18,423 nucleotides of DNA, from IMG/VR virus record IMGVR_UViG_2879770953_000006; one strand, 5' to 3'. This document shows positions 1-18,423 of the stretch, one piece after another. A program made the translations under genes and the position numbers. This DNA comes from a virus (lineage: Duplodnaviria; Heunggongvirae; Uroviricota; Caudoviricetes). Under the pieces are notes generated by a model. It did not search any database. It was not told the DNA's origin and was given only the letters and a program-made list of their open reading frames with translations. Numbering within the stretch: the stretch's first letter is position 1; every line of letters starts with the position of its first letter.

Positions 1-302
1 GAGCCGCAGAGGGGAAGTTGCGTCCATTTTGAGGGAAACGGAGCAAAAAACCGCCATTCATACCCTGAATCAATCAGAGCCATCCAGTTTAATCGTCGGT
101 TCCGTTCATATGGAGCAAAAGTGGTGTTGAAGAAACATCCGTTTTGTGGTGTTTTTTTAATCTTTTTGGGGTTTTAATTCCTATCGATGAACTGGTGGCG
201 AACTGTGCAGGGTTGGCGTAACCGGGTACGGAAACCGGCGAGCCTTTCGGCTCCCCCACACAGCCCGCCATAAATCGCGAATGTGACTGTGCAAACGATA
301 TG

Positions 303-323
303 AAAAAAGACGCGGGCGCGTCT
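303..323 (-). terminator. Rho-independent terminator (tR'-like) downstream of segment-A Q
   Basis: On the minus strand a GC-rich hairpin (AGACGCG / CGCGTCT, 308-323) is followed by a T6 run (rc of A6 at 303-308). Lies about 90 nt downstream of the Q stop. Confidence 0.55.
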
Positions 324-385
324 CATATCGCTCCGTAAACATCCGGGACGCCAATCCCGACGCCAGATTTTGCTGGCGCGTGAGG

Positions 386-415
386 AATATAGCCCCGGAT
401 AACAAATTGAGTCAA
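386..415 (-). promoter_or_regulatory. Putative late promoter (PR'-like) overlapping the Q stop codon
   Basis: Minus strand reads TTGACT (rc of 410-415), 18-nt spacer, TATATT (rc of 386-391). Position immediately after Q mirrors lambda PR'; the short distance to the terminator at 303-323 suggests a small 6S-like RNA. Confidence 0.4.
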
Positions 416-1852: not shown

Positions 1853-1985
1853 CGTAGTTCTCCGCTGGCGCAGTAGAATGGGTGTTCAGCCCGTTATGTA
1901 GTATACCAGAATTAATGCCAATACTAACAGGGTAATGCTGCCAACTTACTGATTTAGTGTATGATGGTGATTTTAAGGTGCTTGC

Positions 1986-2261
1986 GTGGCTTCCATTTCC
2001 ATCAGATGTCCTTCCTGCTCCGCTACTGAAGGCGTGGTGCGTAACGGCAAAAGCACTGCCGGACATCAGCGCTATCTCTGCTCTCATTGCCGTAAAACAT
2101 GGCAACTACAGTTCACTTACACCGCCTCTCAGCCCGGTACGCACCAGAAAATCATTGATATGGCCATGAATGGCGTCGGATGTCGCGCCAGCGCACGCAT
2201 TATGGGCGTTGGCCTCAACACGGTTTTACGTCACTTAAAAAACTCAGGCCGCAGTCGGTAA
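1986..2261 (+). CDS. insA: IS1 InsA
   Basis: Translation [66 protein letters not shown]... is near-identical to IS1 InsA. Confidence 0.95.
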
Positions 2262-2683
2262 CCTCGCGCATACAACCGGGCAGTGATGTGATTGTCTGCG
2301 CTGAAATGGACGAACATTGGGGCTACGTCGGTGCTAAATCACGTCAGCGCTGGCTGTTTTACGCGTATGACAGGATACGGAGGACGGTTGTGACGCACGT
2401 CTTCGGTGAACGCACTCTGGCCACACTGGAGCGTCTTCTGAGCCTGCTGTCGGCCTTTGAGGTCGTGGTATGGATGACGGATGGCTGGCCGCTGTATGAA
2501 TCACGCCTGAAGGGAAAGCTGCACGTTATCAGCAAGCGTTACACTCAGCGCATTGAGCGACATAATCTGAATCTGAGACAACATCTGGCAAGGCTGGGAC
2601 GGAAGTCACTGTCGTTCTCAAAATCGGTGGAGCTGCATGACAAGGTCATCGGGCATTATCTGAACATAAAACACTATCAGTAA
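2180..2683 (+). CDS. insB: IS1 InsB reading frame (expressed as InsAB' by -1 frameshift)
   Basis: Translation ...[50 protein letters not shown]... matches IS1 InsB. Coordinates are the ORF-track frame. Confidence 0.9.
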
Positions 2684-2700
2684 GTTGGAGTCATTACCTA

Positions 2701-2952
2701 CTAACAGGATGCTCTGACTCGCAATTCATCCAGCAGTTTATCATTTCCCATAATGTCACTTACCCTCATCGGTAAAAAAATTGCCTTTCGACCATTACGA
2801 TACATTATTGATTTTGGGGTTTCAGGGAAGTAATCCATTTCGACTATAACTGACAGGTCATCACGACGTATGACTGCGTATTTGCTACTAAATAGTTTCT
2901 TTATTTTTTCCACGATGCCTCCAGGTTTATAAGTACAAACGGTTATATCCAC
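2701..2952 (-). CDS. Hypothetical small protein (83 aa), weak start
   Basis: ORF between the hok locus and the nin genes. First codon is GTG with no obvious SD. The stop TAG lies inside the IS1 target-site duplication, so IS1 inserted just 3' of this ORF. Confidence 0.35.
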   Translation of the reverse strand: MDITVCTYKPGGIVEKIKKLFSSKYAVIRRDDLSVIVEMDYFPETPKSIMYRNGRKAIFLPMRVSDIMGNDKLLDELRVRASC

Positions 2953-3099
2953 ATAGAGACAAAAATATTAATCTGAAAAATATTTATTTCACGCCGTATA
3001 TTTGATTGTTTAATGTGCAAGTACAATGACTTTTATTTTTTGTTGTGTATATAATCAAATATATGGTTATTTTTCACCCTGCGTATTCAGCACGCAACA

Positions 3100-3122
3100 A
3101 AAAACCCGCCGAAGCGGGTTTA
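3100..3122 (-). terminator. Rho-independent terminator at 3' end of hok transcript (copy 1)
   Basis: Minus strand: CCCGC-TTCG-GCGGG hairpin followed by T-run (rc of AAAAAACCCGCCGAAGCGGGTTT). Confidence 0.7.
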
Positions 3123-3188
3123 GTGCGGGTGCGTTGAGGATGCCTGACACATGAGAGGTGGCGAGGGATTTCTCCCCCGCCTGGTCTC

Positions 3189-3344
3189 TTACTCCTCAGG
3201 TTCGTAAGCTGTGAAGACAGCGACCTCCGTCTGGCCGGTTCGGATTCGTACCTCGCAGAGGTCTTTCCTCGTTACCAGTGCCGTCACTATGACGGTTAAA
3301 CAGATGACGATCAGGGCGATTAACATCGCCTTTTGCTGCTTCAT
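3189..3344 (-). CDS. hok: Hok-family type I toxin (51 aa), copy 1
   Basis: Translation MKQQKAMLIALIVICLTVIVTALVTRKDLCEVRIRTGQTEVAVFTAYEPEE matches HokD/RelF. ATG at 3342-3344 with SD AAGGAG. CDS is 100% identical in nucleotides to the copy at 16525-16680. Confidence 0.9.
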   Translation of the reverse strand: MKQQKAMLIALIVICLTVIVTALVTRKDLCEVRIRTGQTEVAVFTAYEPEE

Positions 3345-3401
3345 AGCCTGCTTCTCCTTGCCTTTCGGCACGTAAGAGGCTAACCTACATTTGTGAGACA
3401 T
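3189..3401 (-). CDS. mok: Mok-like in-frame upstream extension of hok (70 aa ORF)
   Basis: An ATG at 3399-3401 opens the same frame 19 codons upstream of hok (MSHKCRLASYVPKGKEKQA-MKQQ...), as in chromosomal mok/hok pairs. Absent from the second hok copy. Confidence 0.45.
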   Translation of the reverse strand: MSHKCRLASYVPKGKEKQAMKQQKAMLIALIVICLTVIVTALVTRKDLCEVRIRTGQTEVAVFTAYEPEE

Positions 3402-3682
3402 AGATTGGGCCTCAGATTAATGTTAAGCGTCTTGCAGGACGCGTAATGTTAACTGGGGCTTTTCTCTGTCTGCCTTACAGTGGCATGCCCGAGGCAGACA
3501 GCCTCAAGCACCCGCAGCAATCTTACCGATACCGATAAGAAAACGCTATTTTTTATTGCCAGCACCTTCTATCCAGGCTAATTTATCTGCGTCAGAACGG
3601 CGCAATGCGCTCGCCTGAGATACGTTTACTTGCCATGGTAACAACAGGTAACGGCAATTGCTGTTTCTGTTTTGTTTCCTTC

Positions 3683-3713
3683 AAAAACCCCGGACCATCA
3701 ATCCGGGGTTTTT
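3683..3713. terminator. Bidirectional intrinsic terminator
   Basis: AAAAA-CCCCGGA-CCATCAA-TCCGGGG-TTTTT: 7-bp GC-rich stem flanked by an A-run and a T-run, immediately after the 27-aa ORF. Confidence 0.7.
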
Positions 3714-3718
3714 GTTTG

Positions 3719-3802
3719 TTAACCCCAACGGCAAATCGAATACACCACCAGCGCCACCGCCATCGCAATTCCTACCGTGGTGAATGCCTCAGGCCAGGTC
3801 AT
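3719..3802 (-). CDS. Small hydrophobic peptide (27 aa, MTWPEAFTTVGIAMAVALVVYSICRWG)
   Basis: Not in the ORF track because it is under 60 aa. ATG overlaps the stop of the upstream gene (ATGA at 3799-3802), SD GGAGGTGA upstream, single predicted TM helix, terminator directly downstream. Confidence 0.4.
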   Translation of the reverse strand: MTWPEAFTTVGIAMAVALVVYSICRWG

Positions 3803-4164
3803 TGATTCACCTCCTGCGGTGGTTCCGGTAGCGGCATCCAGTGAGTTGAGCTCTCTACTTCAACGCCGTCTTTGTCCACAAAAGCCATCTTATTCCCGCC
3901 ACGAGTGGGGCAAAAAACCTTATCCCAGGAACCGGGGAATACATTCCCGAGATCATCGAGAAGAATCACATCGCAATATTCAGCAGGAACTGCATCACTA
4001 CAGCTTATCCAGCCAGCCAGAGTTACCGGAGAGTTGCCAGCCTTACGCATGGCCATTTCCACGATTTCAACCATATCTCCTGGTGGAATTTTACAAAGTT
4101 GCCCAATACATTTCTGCTGCCTGGCATATTCGAGAATGTGCTCCAGTTTGGTTCGATTAATCAT
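3799..4164 (-). CDS. Hypothetical phage protein (121 aa), possibly DUF551-type
   Basis: TAATG stop/start overlap with the upstream gene. C-terminal HWMPLPEPP motif recalls DUF551 phage proteins; this is recollection only. Confidence 0.55.
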   Translation of the reverse strand: MINRTKLEHILEYARQQKCIGQLCKIPPGDMVEIVEMAMRKAGNSPVTLAGWISCSDAVPAEYCDVILLDDLGNVFPGSWDKVFCPTRGGNKMAFVDKDGVEVESSTHWMPLPEPPQEVNQ

Positions 4165-4829
4165 TATTTATCTCCCTTAAGCATGGCAGCGCGGCAGGCG
4201 TTCCAGCCATCAACATAATCAAACGTATTACTATCGTTTGGCCCGATTTCATCCGGCACTATCGGCTCTGGTTGGATAGTGACGTTGGCAAAGGCAGCAC
4301 GCAAACCGGTTTTAATTTCTTCGATTTCACCAGAGCCAAGCGATGAATCTGACAGTGCGTGATGGAATGCGTAAGCCATGTCGTCGTTTACTGCAACCGG
4401 CACTGCCGGCGCTGCGTAAAGCGGTGTTATATCTGCCCGAAAATCACATGCTTTATGCAGTCGTACCCAACGCTCAACTTCCGCTTTGTCAAAATATATA
4501 GCAGTGAACGTATTAGATTCCTGGTCAACTTGAGTAAACGTCACCTTCCACGCTACAGCTACGGCTTTCCATCCATCAGGTTGTCGCATTCGCGGGGCAG
4601 CATAAAGCTCATGCATTCCATCAGGCAGCGAGTGACCCACATACTCACCGAACCCGTCAATACACATGCCCCCATCTTCAACAATGCATTCCGCTACAGG
4701 CTCTGCTTCCAGTGATGCCAGAGCGATAAGCGCCAGTTCACGAATTTCACCGCCGTCTATATCGTCAATATCATCGCGGCCAGAAATGTTAGCCAGCCAT
4801 TGCAGTCGCTCTTTGGTAATAGTGGCCAT
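4164..4829 (-). CDS. Hypothetical acidic phage protein (221 aa) with repeated LYAAP motif
   Basis: ATG at 4827-4829 with SD AAGGGG. Overlaps the 3' end of the HNH gene by 73 nt in another frame. No recognisable catalytic motif. Confidence 0.55.
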   Translation of the reverse strand: MATITKERLQWLANISGRDDIDDIDGGEIRELALIALASLEAEPVAECIVEDGGMCIDGFGEYVGHSLPDGMHELYAAPRMRQPDGWKAVAVAWKVTFTQVDQESNTFTAIYFDKAEVERWVRLHKACDFRADITPLYAAPAVPVAVNDDMAYAFHHALSDSSLGSGEIEEIKTGLRAAFANVTIQPEPIVPDEIGPNDSNTFDYVDGWNACRAAMLKGDK

Positions 4830-5191
4830 GCCGTAGCCCCTTCTTGATATTTTTCAAACCAGAACACAACCGGGTCAGATTTCATTTCAACCAATCCCAT
4901 ACGAACCAGCGCTTTGCCTTTCCCGGACGCAAGGAATTCACGACGACCATCACTGATAATTCGTCGATAATCTTCTAGGCTACTGCAATGCTTGTGCAGA
5001 TTGCATGGGTGGCATTCTGGTACCATGTTGGATATATCGTCACGTTCCTGGTGAAGCATATTTCCATCAAAACGAATGACCGGTTTTACATGGTCTGCAT
5101 GCCACTTTTCGCCAAGTTCGCAGCCGCAATAAGCGCAGCGACCACCGAACTTCATGCGCAGTTCTGCACGTTGTTTTTTCGTCAGTGCCAT
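4757..5191 (-). CDS. HNH endonuclease (144 aa)
   Basis: ORF-track ORF 4757..5281 begins with TTG; the preferred ATG at 5189-5191 has SD AAGGAAAG. Motifs CAYCGCEL...WHADHVKPV...CHPCNLHK are typical of HNH nucleases. Confidence 0.75.
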   Translation of the reverse strand: MALTKKQRAELRMKFGGRCAYCGCELGEKWHADHVKPVIRFDGNMLHQERDDISNMVPECHPCNLHKHCSSLEDYRRIISDGRREFLASGKGKALVRMGLVEMKSDPVVFWFEKYQEGATAWPLLPKSDCNGWLTFLAAMILTI

Positions 5192-5192
5192 A

Positions 5193-5411
5193 TCAGCTTT
5201 CCTTATACGGATTAATTTTATTGTGCAGTGTGTTGAATGACGCCCATACCACGTCGTTATACAATTCAATAACTGGCTCAATTATTTTTCCGATTATCCA
5301 GACAAAAATTAGCGGGGATATCGGTGTCATCAACACGATAAACAGAATGAGAAACAGGAATTCTGTTGTTCTACTCTTTCGCGGATATTTTTTTCTAAAT
5401 AATGTAACCAT
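5193..5411 (-). CDS. Small membrane protein (72 aa), AT-rich
   Basis: Basic N-terminus (KKYPRKSR) followed by a roughly 28-residue hydrophobic stretch. Its last codons form the SD of the downstream HNH gene (stop TGA, 1-nt spacer, ATG). Base composition is markedly more AT-rich than neighbours. Confidence 0.5.
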   Translation of the reverse strand: MVTLFRKKYPRKSRTTEFLFLILFIVLMTPISPLIFVWIIGKIIEPVIELYNDVVWASFNTLHNKINPYKES

Positions 5412-5503
5412 TCATTACCGCCCTTTCGGGCGGTCTCCTGATGATTTGAGGGTGCAGAAATCCCTCCGGTTAAGGATTAAATTTTTAACAGTGCTAAATT
5501 TAA

Positions 5504-5860
5504 TTATTCAGTTCTGGATTTTGTCGCCCTGCGTATCCGCGCTTTCGCGTTACGCTCAATCTGTATCAGCTTTTCTATATTTCTCCGCCTTTCCTGTTCC
5601 TCCTGGCGCAATAGCCTTACATCATCTGCCAGTCTGGTTTCTCTTTTTGCCACAGAGAGCATCCAGTCAAACGGCTCCACAACCGCACCGCAGATTTTAC
5701 AGCGGACCTGACGCTCTTTTTCGTCAACCCGGACAGAGGCGTGATGGCAATATGGTCTTTCCGATGGTTCATAAAGAAAATTAACCTGATTACGTGGGTC
5801 ATCCTCTTTTACCGGAAATAAAACGATATTGCTTAACTCATCTTCTGGTTTTATTTCCAT
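5504..5860 (-). CDS. Hypothetical Zn-ribbon protein with basic coiled-coil C-terminus (118 aa)
   Basis: Strong SD AAGGAGAGGAG upstream of the ATG at 5858-5860. CHH...CKIC motif, then a Q/E/R-rich C-terminal segment. Confidence 0.6.
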   Translation of the reverse strand: MEIKPEDELSNIVLFPVKEDDPRNQVNFLYEPSERPYCHHASVRVDEKERQVRCKICGAVVEPFDWMLSVAKRETRLADDVRLLRQEEQERRRNIEKLIQIERNAKARIRRATKSRTE

Positions 5861-5917: not shown

Positions 5918-6340
5918 TCACAGTACCGCCTCCTGAAATTTCCCCTGATAAAACGCCAGCACGCGCTGCATAGCTTCGCTCTTCCGGCACTCGCGACAGA
6001 TTATATTCAGGCGCCTGTCGTAGCGGCGTATTTCTCCGTCTGGTAATGACCAGATAAGGTCAGGATCAACCACAACCGGTTTCTTCACCTTTACCCTCGA
6101 TAGCTTTTTGCGGGCGTTTTGCCAGTCTTTATGAGCCTGTTCAGAGGGAAATACCCCGTAGCCAGAATTATATACATCACCACTTGCGACCAGTTCCATG
6201 CATAAGCGACCGACAGACGCACGACTGATACCTGTTTCATCTGACAACTGCCGAATCGTGACCCGACCGTCCTGATGCACGAGTTCCACAATTCGCGTCT
6301 TCAGTTCTTCCCGCTGTTCGGGAGTAAAAGGTTTCGCCAT
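5918..6340 (-). CDS. Putative winged-helix DNA-binding protein (140 aa)
   Basis: SD AGGAGG 7 nt upstream of the ATG. N-terminal HTH-like segment (VTIRQLSDETGISRASVGRLCMELVASGDV) and C-terminal CxxC. Confidence 0.6.
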   Translation of the reverse strand: MAKPFTPEQREELKTRIVELVHQDGRVTIRQLSDETGISRASVGRLCMELVASGDVYNSGYGVFPSEQAHKDWQNARKKLSRVKVKKPVVVDPDLIWSLPDGEIRRYDRRLNIICRECRKSEAMQRVLAFYQGKFQEAVL

Positions 6341-9695: not shown

Positions 9696-9998
9696 ATGAG
9701 CAGAAAAACCCAACGTTACTCTAAAGAGTTCAAAGCCGAAGCTGTCAGAACGGTTCTTGAAAATCAACTTTCGATCAGTGAAGGCGCTTCCCGATTATCT
9801 CTTCCTGAAGGCACTTTAGGACAATGGGTTACCGCCGCCAGAAAAGGGCTCGGTACTCCTGGTTCCCGCACGGTGGCTGAACTGGAATCTGAAATTCTGC
9901 AACTGCGTAAGGCGTTAAATGAAGCTCGCCTTGAGCGAGATATATTAAAAAAAGCAACAGCGTATTTTGCACAGGAGTCGCTGAAAAATACGCGTTAA
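9696..9998 (+). CDS. IS600-like OrfA (100 aa)
   Basis: Translation MSRKTQRYSKEFKAEAVRTVLENQLSISEGASRLSLPEGTLGQWV...; HTH plus leucine-zipper arrangement typical of IS3-family OrfA. Confidence 0.9.
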   Translation: MSRKTQRYSKEFKAEAVRTVLENQLSISEGASRLSLPEGTLGQWVTAARKGLGTPGSRTVAELESEILQLRKALNEARLERDILKKATAYFAQESLKNTR

Positions 9999-10033
9999 TC
10001 GAACAATGGCGACAACAATTTCCCATTGAAGCG

Positions 10034-10852
10034 ATGTGTCAGGTATTTGGTGTATCCAGGAGCGGTTATTACAACTGGGTACAGCATGAACCCTCAGACA
10101 GAAAACAAAGTGATGAGCGGCTAAAACTGGAGATTAAGGTGGCACATATCCGCACTCGCGAAACATATGGAACCCGGCGGCTCCAGACGGAGCTGGCAGA
10201 GAATGGCATCATCGTTGGTCGTGACCGACTGGCACGTCTTCGTAAGGAGCTGAGGCTACGCTGTAAGCAGAAACGCAAGTTCAGAGCGACTACGAACCCG
10301 AACCACAATCTGCCAGTTGCGCCAAATCTGCTGAACCAGACGTTCGCTCCTACAGCACCAAATCAGGTCTGGGTGGCGGACCTGACGTATGTTGCCACAC
10401 AGGAGGGATGGTTGTACCTCGCTGGCATCAAAGATGTTTATACGTGCGAAATTGTCGGCTACGCCATGGGAGAGCGCATGACAAAAGAGCTGACAGGTAA
10501 AGCCCTGTTTATGGCGCTCAGGAGCCAGCGCCCACCTGCCGGGCTAATCCACCACTCTGATCGAGGTTCACAGTACTGCGCATACGATTACCGGGTCATA
10601 CAGGAGCAGTTTGGTCTGAAAACATCAATGTCGCGTAAAGGTAACTGTTACGACAACGCTCCGATGGAAAGCTTCTGGGGAACGCTGAAAAATGAGAGCC
10701 TGAGCCACTATCGTTTTAATAACCGGGATGAAGCCATCTCAGTAATACGGGAATACATTGAGATTTTCTACAATCGTCAGCGTCGTCACTCTCGTCTGGG
10801 GAATATCTCCCCGGCAGCCTTCAGGGAAAAATATCATCAGATGGCTGCTTAA
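10034..10852 (+). CDS. IS600-like OrfB transposase frame (272 aa; normally an OrfAB frameshift fusion)
   Basis: DDE transposase motifs (...WVADLTYV...HHSDRGSQY...NAPMESFWGTLK...). Confidence 0.9.
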   Translation: MCQVFGVSRSGYYNWVQHEPSDRKQSDERLKLEIKVAHIRTRETYGTRRLQTELAENGIIVGRDRLARLRKELRLRCKQKRKFRATTNPNHNLPVAPNLLNQTFAPTAPNQVWVADLTYVATQEGWLYLAGIKDVYTCEIVGYAMGERMTKELTGKALFMALRSQRPPAGLIHHSDRGSQYCAYDYRVIQEQFGLKTSMSRKGNCYDNAPMESFWGTLKNESLSHYRFNNRDEAISVIREYIEIFYNRQRRHSRLGNISPAAFREKYHQMAA

Positions 10853-10895
10853 AAAAAGAACAAATGGTAGTGTCCGCTATTGCCAGTACACCTCA

Positions 10896-11056
10896 GTCAG
10901 ATATGTCAGCAGCCCAAACAGCAGACTCCCCAGCACGCCTATTGCCGCCCACTGAGACGGGGAAAACCTGTCCAGCAACTGCAGGAACCAGTAGCCCGTT
11001 CCCACCGCTGACGTGGTGTATGACACACCTGTTGTGATTTTTTCCATCTGGTCCAT
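10896..11056 (-). pseudogene. S21-type pinholin, 3'-truncated by IS600
   Basis: Translation [54 protein letters not shown] closely resembles phage 21 holin S21 over 53 native codons. The reading frame then runs 5 codons into the IS600 end (EVYWQ, stop). Dual-start motif M-D-Q-M present; SD GGGAGA. Confidence 0.75.
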
Positions 11057-11363
11057 ACCCCGTCTCCCGTTATCCGGAAGCTGACAACAATAAAAAAGCC
11101 ACCAGTTAACTACTGATGGCTCTGATAACTCATGCAAGCGTCTCAGACGACCCACTGACACTACCGGTGAGTTTAACGATACCTTCCATTTGACTGGCTC
11201 ACTTTTTATGATGATGCCGGTGCATTTATCTCCAGCACCAGACTTTCTATCTCAACGCCATACGTTGCATTTTTGGTAATATCCGTCAGCGTCAGTGCAT
11301 TTAGTCCCACTGCCAGACTGTCTTTTATGGCCTGGAATGCCGGGCCAGTACGATGACGTAGTA

Positions 11364-11552
11364 TCACTCCGGCTCAGTTGCACCACTGACCACCACATCA
11401 CCTTCTGCTGCAATCGCCTGCATCAGGGTATAAGGGGTTATGGCCACCGGACTACCAAACGGCTGCCAGCCCTCTTTCAGTTTATGTGTCAGCTTTTCCG
11501 CAAGATCTGACGGCGGCGCCGCCCTGACAACATCATAGTGTTTAAATGCCAT
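11364..11552 (-). CDS. Small conserved phage protein (DUF1737-like by recollection), 62 aa
   Basis: ORF-track ORF 11364..11567; preferred ATG at 11550-11552 with SD GGTGGA. Lies upstream of the holin, as in Stx-phage lysis regions. Confidence 0.5.
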   Translation of the reverse strand: MAFKHYDVVRAAPPSDLAEKLTHKLKEGWQPFGSPVAITPYTLMQAIAAEGDVVVSGATEPE

Positions 11553-11811
11553 GGTTCTTTCCACCATCTGAAAAATAATTCTTTAAAATACCTGACATGT
11601 AATACAGAAAAAACACAAAACCATACCTTAAATAAAAACCTGATTATCAAGCAGATATGCATGGATAAACTACAAGACGAGATATAAACCACCCTGCATT
11701 TAAATAAACAATAAACAACATCAGAAAAATAATTCTGCTCTATGGTTTAATTCAAAAATATCATTTATACTTTTCAGAACATCACCAGCAAGGCATAAAC
11801 AAGGAAACTAA

Positions 11812-12147
11812 ATGAAGTGGATTGTGATTGATACAGTTATCCAGCCATCATGCGGAATATCTTTTTCAGTCATATGGAGTAAAATAAAATTAATAATCTG
11901 GTATCAATCGGATGCTTTCTTACCTCCTGAAAGTATATTTACACTGACTCACACAGGCATCATGCTCAATAACAAAGTGCTACCTGTAACCATTTACAAC
12001 GTAGTACCATTCAATAAAACATTCTGGAATTTAATCAAAAACAGCCAGGAATGCCCTACAAATACAGATAACGTATTGAATGAATGCTTTAATAACCGTT
12101 GCACTCTGCAAATATGTCCTTATGGACTAAAACAACAAAGTCCATAA
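11812..12147 (+). CDS. Hypothetical protein (111 aa), AT-rich cargo ORF
   Basis: ATG with SD AGGAAA 6 nt upstream. The only plus-strand ORF with good signals inside the prophage; AT-rich codon usage; C-terminal Cys cluster. A hairpin at 12184-12199 (CCCCTC-CGGA-GAGGGG) lies about 37 nt downstream. Confidence 0.45.
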
Positions 12148-12594
12148 GGAGTTTACTCACATCTGACAAAATCAATATAAACAGCCCCTCCGGAGAGGGG
12201 CTGGAGAGTGGCGCTATGTGCCATTGCATGGTGCCGGGTGCCTCCCGGTGAATTCAGTACCAGCACCTGAATCCGCGATTATCCCATATACCTACTCGCT
12301 GATTGCCCCTCCGCACAGGGGGATTCACCATGCCAGTTTCTTTTAACAAACTCCCCGCAAACCAGACAACAGTCAACCGCCTGAATTGTGAAGTATTTAA
12401 AAATTTCTCCCGCTAACTGATACCCGGCTAACAGTCTGGCGTTTTCTTTTTCAGCAACGGGAAAGCAACAACCACCACACCCGCCACCAGCACACCGTCA
12501 GCCGGCACTGACATTATCCGGCTGCTGCAATGCCATTCACAAAAACAGTAAGCAATCACTTTTTACCGTAACAGGTGATAATCCAGATATGTAT

Positions 12595-12948
12595 CTACCC
12601 CAGATGAGTAATCCGAAGTTCATCCATACCACAGGTCCTGGCTATTCTGTTGTACTCCTGAACAAGAGCAAATAATTCTGAATTAGCAACCATGAACTCA
12701 TCGCAAACCCTCTGTATAGCATCACTATTCAGAATAATAACGTCTCTTCCCGAAAGACGATCAGGAGTACAGAACAAAACTGTCAAACGGCTGAAGGCCT
12801 TTGCTCGTGCTGCATTGACTATATCAATACGCTGCCTAAGGATGAAACACCCCGACGCCTCATCAATATTCACTCTACCCACACCATATGAATGATAAAT
12901 ACTTAATGCTGAAAAAACCATTAGACCGTATAACAAATACTCAATCAA
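12595..12948 (-). CDS. Hypothetical protein (117 aa from TTG; 108 aa from ATG at 12921), first ORF downstream of the tRNA genes
   Basis: Six-frame ORF with no strong SD. Sits at the position stxAB occupies in Stx phages. No motif recognised. Confidence 0.4.
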   Translation of the reverse strand: MIEYLLYGLMVFSALSIYHSYGVGRVNIDEASGCFILRQRIDIVNAARAKAFSRLTVLFCTPDRLSGRDVIILNSDAIQRVCDEFMVANSELFALVQEYNRIARTCGMDELRITHLG

Positions 12949-13058
12949 TACTTAACAGAACTTTTATTTTTGACAAATATATAATATTTTCAACAATATC
13001 CTGAGCCAGGTATATTTCAGTATAAGGCTCTGCCGGAAGGAATCTGGAAGAATGAATA

Positions 13059-13135
13059 TGGCGCGCTGTACTGGATTCGAACCAGTGACCGATTGCTTAG
13101 AAGGCAATTGCTCTGTCCGGCTGAGCTAACAACGC
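13059..13135 (-). tRNA. tRNA-Arg (anticodon UCU), phage-encoded
   Basis: rc reads GCGTTGTTAGCTCAGCCGGACAGAGCAATTGCCTTCTAAGCAATCGGTCACTGGTTCGAATCCAGTACAGCGCGCCA. Cloverleaf is consistent: 7-bp acceptor stem with one G-U pair, T-loop GGTTCGAATCC, anticodon loop CTTCTAA, 3' CCA. Confidence 0.85.
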
Positions 13136-13236
13136 TGAATACCGATAATGGACCGCCATCGGGGACCCGCCCCCCGCACCAACAACCCTGTTATCGTGTC
13201 GTCTGCTCTTCCTGATAAGCTAATGGCGGTTTGTGA

Positions 13237-13312
13237 TGGTGGCCCTTGCTGGATTTGAACCAGCGACCTGGCGATTATGAGTCGCTCGCTCTCACCACTG
13301 AGCTAAAGGGCC
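13237..13312 (-). tRNA. tRNA-Ile2 (anticodon CAU, ileX-like; formally could be a Met tRNA)
   Basis: rc reads GGCCCTTTAGCTCAGTGGTGAGAGCGAGCGACTCATAATCGCCAGGTCGCTGGTTCAAATCCAGCAAGGGCCACCA, which closely resembles E. coli ileX. Confidence 0.8.
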
Positions 13313-13351
13313 GGGAGCAGAATAATAACGGTCCGTAATTAATTTCGCAAT

Positions 13352-13373
13352 AAAAAACCCGCTCAGCGGCGGG
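13352..13373 (-). terminator. tR'-like intrinsic terminator downstream of PR'
   Basis: Minus strand: CCCGC-CGCTGA-GCGGG hairpin followed by T6 (rc of AAAAAACCCGCTCAGCGGCGGG). Confidence 0.65.
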
Positions 13374-13407
13374 TTGTAGAAACTCTTCTAACGTCAGGCA
13401 TAAAACG

Positions 13408-13450
13408 CCCATCATTATGACGAATTTACCACAGATTCCGGAAAAATCAA
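13408..13450 (-). promoter_or_regulatory. Lambda PR'-like late promoter with qut/pause element
   Basis: Minus strand TTGATT-16 nt-TAAATT-cgtcaTAATGATGGG, compared with lambda PR' TTGACT-17 nt-TAAATT-tgactcAACGATGGG (from memory). Sits 5 nt after the Q stop. Confidence 0.7.
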
Positions 13451-13455
13451 CCTTG

Positions 13456-14277
13456 TTACCTAGTTACCTTTTTTAACTGCCGCTCAGCCCATGCTTCTTC
13501 AATATCAAACCGGGTCACCAGCGCATCATAAAATTTCTTAACTGTTTTTTCCCATGACGCGCGTGTTATCTGGTTTGTCACCTCGCATATAGCATTAAAT
13601 GCCTCCGTTGATGGTAGTCTTTCATAGCCACGACCACCACAACGCTGGCAGTCTCTGATAACAGGCATACCACGTTTTACCGACTCTTCACGATGAATGG
13701 CGACACCACGCCCACGGCAATCCTTACAGGCGGTGGAAACCTCACCCTTTCCGCCACACTCCGGACAGGCAACTTTTACCACCTCCCTGACTTTTTTCCA
13801 TTCTTCCCAGTAAGACGGATACACACCTTTCGTGCACTTTGCCCATACCGGCGGCTTACCATCCGGATACTGGATCTTGTTTGTAAAAACTATGCTTTCA
13901 ATAAATTTTTCCCCATAGCAACAAGGGCACTGCTTTTTACTCGCTGCGCTGCGGGCATAATCCTCAAAAGCGTACGAAGCCATAATGCGCATCACTACCG
14001 GTTTTATTTCTGCCGGAAGTTTTCTCAACGCCGCCACACGATCGCACCGACTGAGTGCATAATCTGCCAGTAATTCTGTTGCCCGCGCCCTGTCATTCAT
14101 ACTGATGCCCATTTTCCCCAGGAACGCAGAAAAACCCATCTCAGCCCGATTCTGTGTCATGCCCTGCGCGGCCATCACATCAGTGATACTCAGCGCATCT
14201 TTTGACGTTGAGGCCGATGCATCGGTCAGGCCAGGGGATTTTGGGGAGTAGTATTTCGGTAAATCTTCCAGTTTCAT
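13456..14277 (-). CDS. Q: Antitermination protein Q, lambda type (273 aa), with extra Cys-rich insertion
   Basis: Collinear with lambda Q: KYYSPKSP / KFHSPKSP, SITDVMAAQGM / SGTDVMAAMGM, ASYAFEDYARSAA / ATFAYADYCRSAA, C-terminal ...WEKTVKKFYDALV...VTR. Four CxxC motifs, three of them CxxCxGxG. Confidence 0.85.
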   Translation of the reverse strand: MKLEDLPKYYSPKSPGLTDASASTSKDALSITDVMAAQGMTQNRAEMGFSAFLGKMGISMNDRARATELLADYALSRCDRVAALRKLPAEIKPVVMRIMASYAFEDYARSAASKKQCPCCYGEKFIESIVFTNKIQYPDGKPPVWAKCTKGVYPSYWEEWKKVREVVKVACPECGGKGEVSTACKDCRGRGVAIHREESVKRGMPVIRDCQRCGGRGYERLPSTEAFNAICEVTNQITRASWEKTVKKFYDALVTRFDIEEAWAERQLKKVTR

Positions 14278-17561: not shown

Positions 17562-18423
17562 TGAGGTGTACTGGCAATAGCGGACACTACCATTTGTTCT
17601 TTTTTTAAGCAGCCATCTGATGATATTTTTCCCTGAAGGCTGCCGGGGAGATATTCCCCAGACGAGAGTGACGACGCTGACGATTGTAGAAAATCTCAAT
17701 GTATTCCCGTATTACTGAGATGGCTTCATCCCGGTTATTAAAACGATAGTGGCTCAGGCTCTCATTTTTCAGCGTTCCCCAGAAGCTTTCCATCGGAGCG
17801 TTGTCGTAACAGTTACCTTTACGCGACATTGATGTTTTCAGACCAAACTGCTCCTGTATGACCCGGTAATCGTATGCGCAGTACTGTGAACCTCGATCAG
17901 AGTGGTGGATTAGCCCGGCAGGTGGGCGCTGGCTCCTGAGCGCCATAAACAGGGCTTTACCTGTCAGCTCTTTTGCCATACGCTCTCCCATGGCGTAGCC
18001 GACAATTTCGCACGTATAAACATCTTTGATGCCAGCGAGGTACAACCATCCCTCCTGTGTGGCAACATACGTCAGGTCCGCCACCCAGACCTGATTTGGT
18101 GCTGTAGGAGCGAACGTCTGGTTCAGCAGATTTGGCGCAACTGGCAGATTGTGGTTCGGGTTCGTAGTCGCTCTGAACTTGCGTTTCTGCTTACAGCGTA
18201 GCCTCTGCTCCTTACGAAGACGTGCCAGTCGGTCACGACCAACGATGATGCCATTCTCTGCCAGCTCCGTCTGGAGCCGCCGGGTTCCATATGTTTCGCG
18301 AGTGCGGATATGTGCCACCTTAATCTCCAGTTTTAGCCGCTCATCACTTTGTTTTCTGTCTGAGGGTTCATGCTGTACCCAGTTGTAATAACCGCTCCTG
18401 GATACACCAAATACCTGACACAT
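17562..18423 (-). mobile_element. IS600-like element, second copy, inverted; partial (runs off the window)
   Basis: rc of 17562-17604 matches the right end of copy 1 (…GTACACCTCA). OrfB is complete; OrfA and the left end lie beyond the window. Confidence 0.85.
17605..18423 (-). CDS. IS600-like OrfB transposase (272 aa)
   Basis: Differs from copy-1 OrfB at 2 residues (L/Q in RLRKE(L/Q)RLR and T/A in GERM(T/A)KE). Confidence 0.9.
   Translation of the reverse strand: MCQVFGVSRSGYYNWVQHEPSDRKQSDERLKLEIKVAHIRTRETYGTRRLQTELAENGIIVGRDRLARLRKEQRLRCKQKRKFRATTNPNHNLPVAPNLLNQTFAPTAPNQVWVADLTYVATQEGWLYLAGIKDVYTCEIVGYAMGERMAKELTGKALFMALRSQRPPAGLIHHSDRGSQYCAYDYRVIQEQFGLKTSMSRKGNCYDNAPMESFWGTLKNESLSHYRFNNRDEAISVIREYIEIFYNRQRRHSRLGNISPAAFREKYHQMAA

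Follow-up and report, generated by a model that had tools for sequence, protein, structure and literature searches.

The cargo interval of a virus-derived stretch of 18,423 nucleotides (Caudoviricetes; IMG/VR record IMGVR_UViG_2879770953_000006), referred to here as the window, very probably forms the moron region, mosaic in structure, of a defective lambdoid prophage that is near-identical to the potB prophage of uropathogenic Escherichia coli CFT073, with the RssB anti-adaptor gene iraL as its main functional cargo. An earlier note, made from the letters alone, had described this interval (positions 11,570-13,058) as uncharacterised AT-rich cargo lying where Shiga toxin (Stx)-converting phages carry stxAB, expressed on prophage induction and occupying a classic slot for toxins and other virulence morons. 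The Stx-phage-like layout is confirmed, and the late antiterminator Q, a terminator, tRNA-Ile2, tRNA-Arg(UCU), ~1.5 kb of cargo, a DUF1737 open reading frame (ORF) and an S21-type holin are all located (Table 1). Both of the ORFs that it listed are also present (12595-12948 and 11812-12147), and it recognised no family for either; however, the 111-aa ORF is a member of the IraL/IraM family (NF007393), and the other, ORF117, whose likely 92-residue product we refer to as ORF92, belongs to phrog_2873. The cargo is thus already known in its main part, as iraL is published and a small RNA (sRNA) gene beside it belongs to STnc100, a family already catalogued and since connected with PasD (Zhu, Shabalina and Storz 2026 preprint; PMC12370729).

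The predicted product of the 111-aa ORF is identical at all 111 residues to CFT073 IraL (WP_000871291.1; gene c1429), which places it within the threshold of ≥95% identity to CFT073 iraL that separates iraL from iraM (Hryckowian et al. 2014, PMC4045071). The gene had been regarded as uncharacterised, but its identical counterpart has been studied experimentally in CFT073. The NCBIfam model NF007393 ('anti-adapter protein IraM') matches residues 1-110 of 111 with 162 bits (cutoff 121), and this family also includes IraM of E. coli K-12 (YcgW/ElbA) and RssC of Salmonella, which share the same target, RssB, and the same effect on RpoS stability. Identity to K-12 IraM is 62% over 107 aa (the published IraL-IraM value is 58.9%; PMC4045071), the IraL cysteines at positions 14, 81, 92, 97 and 102 all align with IraM cysteines, and residues 1-78 match the solved IraM structure (PDB 8TWD, E = 9e-32). 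The resemblance to the K-12 iraM locus is limited to the coding sequence (70.6% nucleotide identity), and the flanks, including the promoter region, are unrelated; K-12 iraM adjoins e14, whereas the CFT073 locus adjoins potB. The end of the iraL coding sequence, stop codon included, lies within an inverted repeat (12117-12150, plus strand) that has perfect 12-nt arms and a 10-nt loop (TCCTTATGGACT ... AGTCCATAAGGA); it has no T-run after it and might be a stabilising or terminating 3' hairpin. Flanking repeats that would mark iraL as a mobile cassette were sought, and those present are short and probably due to chance.

The context of the gene is that of CFT073 iraL as well. In both, DUF968, RusA, Q, tRNAs, DUF3927, iraL, DUF1737 and a holin follow one another, and the loci are ~99% identical. 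The full order in CFT073 is DUF968, RusA, Q, (IS200C), tRNA-Ile, tRNA-Arg, tRNA-Arg, DUF3927, a pseudo-hypothetical gene, the IraM-family gene on the opposite strand, DUF1737, a hypothetical gene and the holin. Window positions 11300-13460 align with CFT073 almost base for base, the exceptions being IS200C, which follows Q in CFT073 only, and the stretch between the two tRNAs, where CFT073 has a third tRNA (argN); an IS600 insertion that cuts the holin is present in the window only. The arrangement is common among complete E. coli genomes, and in a megablast search with positions 11400-13140, 864 of the 5426 genomes have at least 80% coverage. The Prokaryotic Genome Annotation Pipeline (PGAP) labels the genes there 'anti-adapter protein IraM', DUF1737, DUF3927, hypothetical and tRNA-Arg.

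In log phase, IraL raises both the level and the stability of RpoS. It interacts with RssB through a contact distinct from that of IraM, and it acts in unstressed log-phase cells (PMC4045071). Given the identity of the two proteins, IraL of the window strain would be expected to bind RssB, the adaptor that hands RpoS, a stress sigma factor, over to the ClpXP protease, and with RssB so bound the degradation of RpoS would be blocked and its level would rise during exponential growth. This mechanism has been demonstrated with the CFT073 protein, and we infer that it applies to the window. The gene is significantly commoner in uropathogenic E. coli (UPEC), prostatitis and Shigella strains than among commensals, and rarer in enterohaemorrhagic and Shiga toxin-producing E. 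coli (EHEC/STEC) (PMC4045071).

Expression upon prophage induction does not suit iraL. The gene lies on the plus strand, and Q, the tRNAs and the holin lie on the minus strand, so that transcription from PR' is antisense to it, and Q-antiterminated late transcripts would be expected to run through iraL in the opposite direction. The iraL 5' end has been mapped by rapid amplification of cDNA ends (5' RACE) in uninduced mid-log CFT073 cells, giving the sequence ACATCACCAGCAAGGCATAAACAAGGAAACCA, and a sigma-70 promoter was proposed (PMC4045071); the mapped start is therefore independent of Q. Later transcriptomics, also with uninduced cells, found that iraL (c1429) mRNA rises in a CFT073 fur mutant and on a shift to 37 °C. 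In the window, iraL would thus be a lysogen-expressed gene, with a sigma-70-type promoter of its own that directs transcription against the late operon.

The 5' RACE sequence is found once in the window (11779-11810, plus strand), with 31 of 32 nt matching and one mismatch. The -10 hexamer TATACT (11766-11771) is kept, as are the start site and the Shine-Dalgarno sequence. Direct comparison of promoter alleles, sequence against sequence, shows that the hexamer upstream, which is TTTACA in CFT073, is TTTA-AT in the window because of a 1-bp deletion of the C. The same base is lost in E. coli ECMA0423, TTTACA is present in CFT073, 042, WP3-W18 and 400625, and AR_0162 has TTTATA. Since the hexamer has lost its C, expression of iraL in the window strain may be lower than in CFT073. 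An 80-mer spanning the promoter is present in 1438 of the 5426 complete genomes, of which 163 have the exact window allele; among the matches sampled, most other alleles span 81 bp, having kept the extra base. We note that the variable C (within 11743-11750; loci L003, L001, L016-L018 and L014) may be a recurrent site for tuning or inactivation of iraL.

The prophage around iraL is degraded. In the DUF1737 ORF the N-terminal part of a nanS-p-type sialate esterase gene is left; it corresponds to positions 1-58 of the 634-position profile phrog_143, its DNA is 84% identical to that of the 933W esterase gene at the 5' end, and a 53-aa ORF next to it is the C-terminal remnant of the same gene. As these two ORFs represent both ends of phrog_143, nanS-p has been internally deleted; PGAP flags the equivalent esterase gene in 042 and CFT073 as a pseudogene without its C-terminus. 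The holin gene is cut after codon 54 by IS600, with 54 of 59 residues matching the CFT073 holin and the match ending after '...TYLT'. The junction (~10892/10893) is also present in ECMA0423 (CP178302.1), which is 99.6% identical over window positions 9972-13546. The lysis cassette is broken, and because IS600 interrupts the holin the prophage would be unable to lyse its host normally.

This decay raises the question of whether the entire block is a remnant that has no current function, with iraL silenced by its promoter lesion and the rest debris in a non-lysing prophage. The broken holin, the reduction of nanS-p to N- and C-terminal stubs and the tRNA tract, where argN is not called and CFT073 has three tRNAs, all fit such an explanation, as do the 1-bp deletion in TTTACA and the minority status of the window promoter allele (163 of 1438). 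However, the iraL ORF is intact and encodes a protein identical to a functional one, its -10 hexamer, start site and Shine-Dalgarno sequence are retained, and the deletion allele itself persists in ECMA0423 and in no fewer than 163 complete genomes. The frames of ORF92 and DUF3927 are also open. We therefore regard a wholly non-functional remnant as unlikely, and favor a defective prophage in which iraL is the main functional cargo.

Comparison with the Stx2 phage 933W places iraL more precisely. The 933W locus contains pT, ileZ, argN and argO (1583-1872), stxA2B2 (1963-3203), STnc100 (3278-3483, plus strand; 208 bits), AsxR (3485-3537) on the opposite strand, nanS-p (3690-5627) and a holin at 6331. 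Slots were placed using four blocks of homology to 933W (Table 1), together with the Rfam matches to STnc100 and AsxR in 933W, and from the four blocks the stx-equivalent slot lies at ~12401-13050 and holds ORF117 and the DUF3927 gene. The placement of cargo at the stx position thus stands for these two genes but not for iraL, which is in the slot equivalent to that of AsxR: the iraL cassette (~11554-12182; ~630 bp, 32% GC) has both the position and the antisense orientation of AsxR, taking the place of the short STnc100-nanS-p spacer in which 933W has that sRNA. The two phages share a backbone and gene order, and AsxR and iraL are both opposite-strand genes of lysogen type between STnc100 and nanS-p, but 933W has stxAB and AsxR where the window has ORF92 and DUF3927 and a protein-coding iraL cassette. 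The Q proteins belong to different families (PF03589 in the window), and nanS-p and the holin are broken in the window. There is no stxAB in the slot, and no part of the window is similar to 933W 1963-3203.

The comparison across related prophages that had been proposed as a check shows that the slot is mosaic. In the toxin-free phage phi296, which has tRNAs, STnc100 and NanS, 232 bp stand against 629 bp of the window, and this comparison confirms that the latter has two extra blocks. Over 12225-13200, including ORF117, DUF3927 and part of STnc100, the viable phage mEp460_ev081 shows 99% identity, and it then continues into other genes, not iraL. The base composition varies along the interval. 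The cargo is AT-rich as had been described at 11568-12172 (the iraL cassette; GC 0.32) and at 12874-13058 (0.31), but the remainder is higher, rising from 0.44 in the core of ORF117 to 0.52 in the DUF3927 gene and 0.55 at 12173-12362. The value is 0.39 for the interval as a whole and 0.49 for the window.

Of ORF117, within the stx-equivalent slot, it could be supposed that it is a chance ORF and iraL the sole real gene in the interval. PGAP reports no gene there in 042, in CFT073 or under any of the 19 full-length matches listed from the 1185 complete genomes (of 5426) that carry ORF92 at ≥95% identity, although one partial match listed overlaps a 'hypothetical protein'. In addition, no Shine-Dalgarno sequence is visible ahead of the TTG or ATG start codons, and residues 1-23 (about the first 25 codons) are modelled poorly, with a predicted local distance difference test score (pLDDT) below 50. 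Nevertheless, ORF117 covers the whole of phrog_2873 (108 positions; 'unknown function') with E = 2e-69, and an exhaustive profile search of 1.8 billion proteins gave 22 cluster representatives. There are near relatives in many assemblies as well as homologues with 56-57% identity, and family members down to 21-40% identity share motifs, which are conserved across 11 ORF92 homologues. In comparison with a 56%-identical homologue, the ratio of nonsynonymous to synonymous substitution rates (dN/dS) is 0.32 in frame (dS 1.1), whereas the two alternative frames give 1.2 and 0.8; there are 35, 33 and 55 differences at the three codon positions. Because dN/dS is 0.32 in frame and about 1 elsewhere, the ORF117 frame is coding, and on these substitution patterns ORF92 is a real gene; that it arose by chance is very improbable, and the missing RefSeq annotation looks like a systematic gap.

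The product is likely the 92-aa protein that starts at GTG 12873. Distant members of phrog_2873 (21-63% identity) are 92-95 aa long and begin at the position of V26, and the homologue in locus L009 has AGGAG ahead of its GTG start, with GGGTAGA at the equivalent stretch of the window. These starts, together with the poorly modelled N-terminus, argue for the shorter product. AlphaFold2 predicts the 92-aa core with confidence (pLDDT 88.6; predicted template modelling score, pTM, 0.75) as two long helices with a conserved TPDRxSG loop. The profile and structure searches that had been proposed for both ORFs thus resolve the 111-aa ORF as IraL but find nothing informative for ORF92. There is no meaningful match in Pfam, NCBIfam or PADLOC, and Foldseek searches of PDB and BFVD gave no match at E ≤ 0.001, only generic helical hairpins. 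UPF0335/GapR-like proteins were the best match in a PDB-sequence profile search (E 0.04), which we treated as noise.

A toxin or virulence moron switched on by Q-dependent late transcription would, with iraL accounted for, have to be ORF92 or DUF3927. These two genes are on the late strand exactly at the position of stxAB in 933W, and their expression may depend on Q. ORF92 is also under purifying selection with no known family, fold or defence-system match, it is unannotated under the full-length matches listed from the genomes that carry it, and homologues are located downstream of Q in other prophages. On the other hand, iraL, a known gene transcribed from the opposite strand, makes up the larger and more AT-rich share of the cargo, ORF92 is a hairpin of two helices, 92 aa long, with nothing that ties it to toxicity, and we saw no signal peptide or enzyme-like domain in it, although no dedicated signal-peptide or transmembrane predictor was run. 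Furthermore, a pT-like promoter upstream of the tRNAs could drive ORF92 without Q. A Q-activated toxin is thus decidedly unlikely. The region is indeed a moron region of a lambdoid late operon and carries a host-modulating gene in iraL.

In loci L004, L005, L009 and L010 the ORF92 homologue directly follows a YdeO/GadX-like AraC-family regulator, and in L009 a TerB-like gene, DUF3927 and a holin come after it; in diverged prophages the adjacent regulators are of the YdeO/GadX/AppY-like AraC type. By this gene order the window has apparently lost the regulator and TerB from a recurrent regulator-ORF92-TerB-DUF3927 module. P0033, the weakest of the relatives at 21% identity, is located within a Mu-like baseplate module and was not counted as context for the family. 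It could be imagined that ORF92 is a host-directed factor, for example a partner or modulator of regulators of stress and acid resistance, and that a module composed of the PR' leader, ORF92, DUF3927, the sRNA and iraL tunes RpoS in the lysogen, although we consider this highly doubtful.

Several points weigh against the assignment of iraL as the functional cargo, or limit its reach. The window promoter departs from that of CFT073 not only in the deleted C of TTTACA but also by a G-to-A change at -1 and a C-to-T change in the untranslated region. The variable C would correspond to the -35 position proposed by the authors of the 5' RACE study, who left open how a second copy of iraL is affected by its mutation at -35 (PMC4045071). 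Expression of the window allele and binding of its product to RssB are presumed by analogy with CFT073, and late transcription might conceivably interfere with iraL. Finally, the explanation is complete for only ~1/4 of the interval, because ORF92, DUF3927 and this copy of STnc100 have no demonstrated function.

Two further genes in the interval, those for DUF3927 and STnc100, had been overlooked in the earlier feature list. The first encodes a 43-aa TciB-like small membrane protein whose 90.7-bit match (gathering score 25) extends over positions 7-53 of the 53 in the profile, and its N-terminus may be slightly short; PGAP annotates it in 042 and CFT073 as WP_000562553.1. The STnc100-family sRNA gene matches the full Rfam model (1-206 of 206; gathering score 47) and has a 3' terminator composed of a 9-pair hairpin and a T-run (12203-12182, minus strand); the fold z-score of the window copy alone is only -1.79. 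As for STnc100/PasD (RF02076; Zhu, Shabalina and Storz 2026 preprint; PMC12370729), it is a full-length match with a 3' terminator upstream of an esterase gene. The 933W copy is in the same position, between stxB2 and nanS-p, and the two differ in score (132 and 208 bits) and have 71% nucleotide identity. In 042 and CFT073, PGAP calls a partial pseudogene ('hypothetical protein') that corresponds to 12218-12346 on the plus strand; because it is wholly inside STnc100, which is on the minus strand, and matches no family, this call is probably spurious.

Upstream of the cargo, the Q gene sets the strand of late transcription. Its product carries a DnaJ-type CXXCXGXG zinc finger, and PGAP labels the equivalent gene in 042 and CFT073 'antitermination protein'. 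It had been described as lambda-type, but its family is PF03589, and the lambda-Q family PF06530 was not reported at E ≤ 0.1 in a Pfam scan. A terminator scan found the hairpin AACCCGCCGCTGAGCGGGTT followed by the T-run TTTTATTG (13375-13356, minus strand). Hexamers of the proposed PR' are readable (TTGATT-16-TAAATT) but score under the promoter-scan threshold, and the PR' and tR' functions are thus putative. The promoter-like site upstream of the tRNAs is within the 86.6% block, which starts at position 1581 of the 933W locus, and the 933W record annotates 1583-1611 as 'pT; putative tRNA promoter'. Since the window site matches this promoter, the tRNAs, and perhaps ORF92 too, may be transcribed without Q. 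Two of the three tRNAs of the ileZ/argN/argO cluster are called in this block; the tRNA with a CAU anticodon is reported as Met by ARAGORN and as tRNA-Ile by PGAP for the identical gene in 042 and CFT073. ARAGORN called no tRNA between tRNA-Ile2 and tRNA-Arg(UCU) (13136-13236, minus strand). This stretch of ~100 bp, as in 042, aligns in its 3' part only, and argN is present there in CFT073 and 933W; it looks like a decayed argN.

On the other side of the cargo, the esterase remnant is separated from the holin by a spacer of ~150 bp (11057-11205, minus strand), which ends in a good hairpin and T-run (GAGCCATCAGTAGTTAACTGGTGGCTTTTTTATTG) and matched no Rfam family. In related prophages the PasA and PasC sRNAs sit between the esterase and holin genes. 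A second IS600-type orfB is present at 17605-18423 (minus strand), running off the right end of the window, and positions 4487-5348 of locus L014 match both this copy and that at 10034-10852 (plus strand) at ~99%. The second copy suggests that the window is bracketed or rearranged by insertion sequence (IS) copies, which fits the lack of any collinear complete genome; none of the 5426 covers at least 80% of the window. In another segment, matches to the C4, isrK, c4-a1b1 and sok RNAs are typical prophage immunity and hok/sok elements.

Table 1. Features and blocks of 933W homology in the 18,423-nt window.
Feature	Position	Strand	Basis
C4 antisense RNA	191-275	-	Rfam, above gathering score
isrK	303-379	-	Rfam, above gathering score
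c4-a1b1	340-392	-	Rfam, above gathering score
sok antitoxin RNA	3339-3513	-	Rfam, above gathering score
IS3-family element (orfA 9696-9998, orfB 10034-10852)	9696-10892	+	annotated IS600 in matching E. coli genome
S21-type holin, cut after codon 54 by IS600	10893-11056	-	PF04971, 80 bits, profile positions 1-54 of 64
Esterase, C-terminal remnant, 53 aa	11206-11367	-	phrog_143 positions 582-632 of 634
DUF1737 ORF, 67 aa, N-terminal remnant of nanS-p-type sialate esterase	11364-11567	-	PF08410, 62 bits
iraL promoter region, start (11779) and 5' untranslated region	11743-11811	+	match to CFT073 5' RACE sequence
iraL, RssB anti-adaptor, 111 aa	11812-12147	+	100% identity to CFT073 IraL; NF007393
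STnc100-family sRNA gene (PasD relative)	12173-12362	-	Rfam RF02076, 132.4 bits
DUF3927 gene, TciB-like small membrane protein, 43 aa	12428-12559	-	PF13064, 90.7 bits; phrog_1470 'TciB-like'
ORF117, probably 92 aa from GTG 12873	12595-12948	-	phrog_2873; dN/dS
tRNA-Arg(UCU), argO type	13059-13135	-	ARAGORN; Rfam tRNA, 68 bits
tRNA, CAU anticodon (tRNA-Ile2, ileZ type)	13237-13312	-	ARAGORN; Rfam tRNA, 72.5 bits
pT-equivalent promoter-like site	13322-13350	-	TTGCGA-17-TATTAT; promoter scan
PR'-like promoter region and putative tR' terminator	13356-13450	-	terminator scan; readable hexamers
Late antiterminator Q, 273 aa	13456-14277	-	PF03589 (Antiterm), 183.7 bits
Homology block, 933W holin upstream region and 5' end	11125-10896		94%
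Homology block, 933W nanS-p 5' end	11553-11445		84%
Homology block, 933W STnc100	12391-12225		71%
Homology block, 933W pT and tRNAs	13352-13051		86.6%

The main result is thus a negative one, in that a candidate new toxin slot resolves into published biology, with IraL expected to give lysogens higher RpoS in exponential phase. Three observations go beyond existing annotation: the location of iraL in the AsxR slot, the variable C of the promoter hexamer, and a conserved 92-aa gene in the stx slot that RefSeq leaves unannotated in 042, CFT073 and the 19 full-length matches sampled. The shared position and orientation of iraL and AsxR suggest a slot that repeatedly carries lysogen-expressed regulators, and variation between strains at the hexamer C may explain differences in their RpoS levels.

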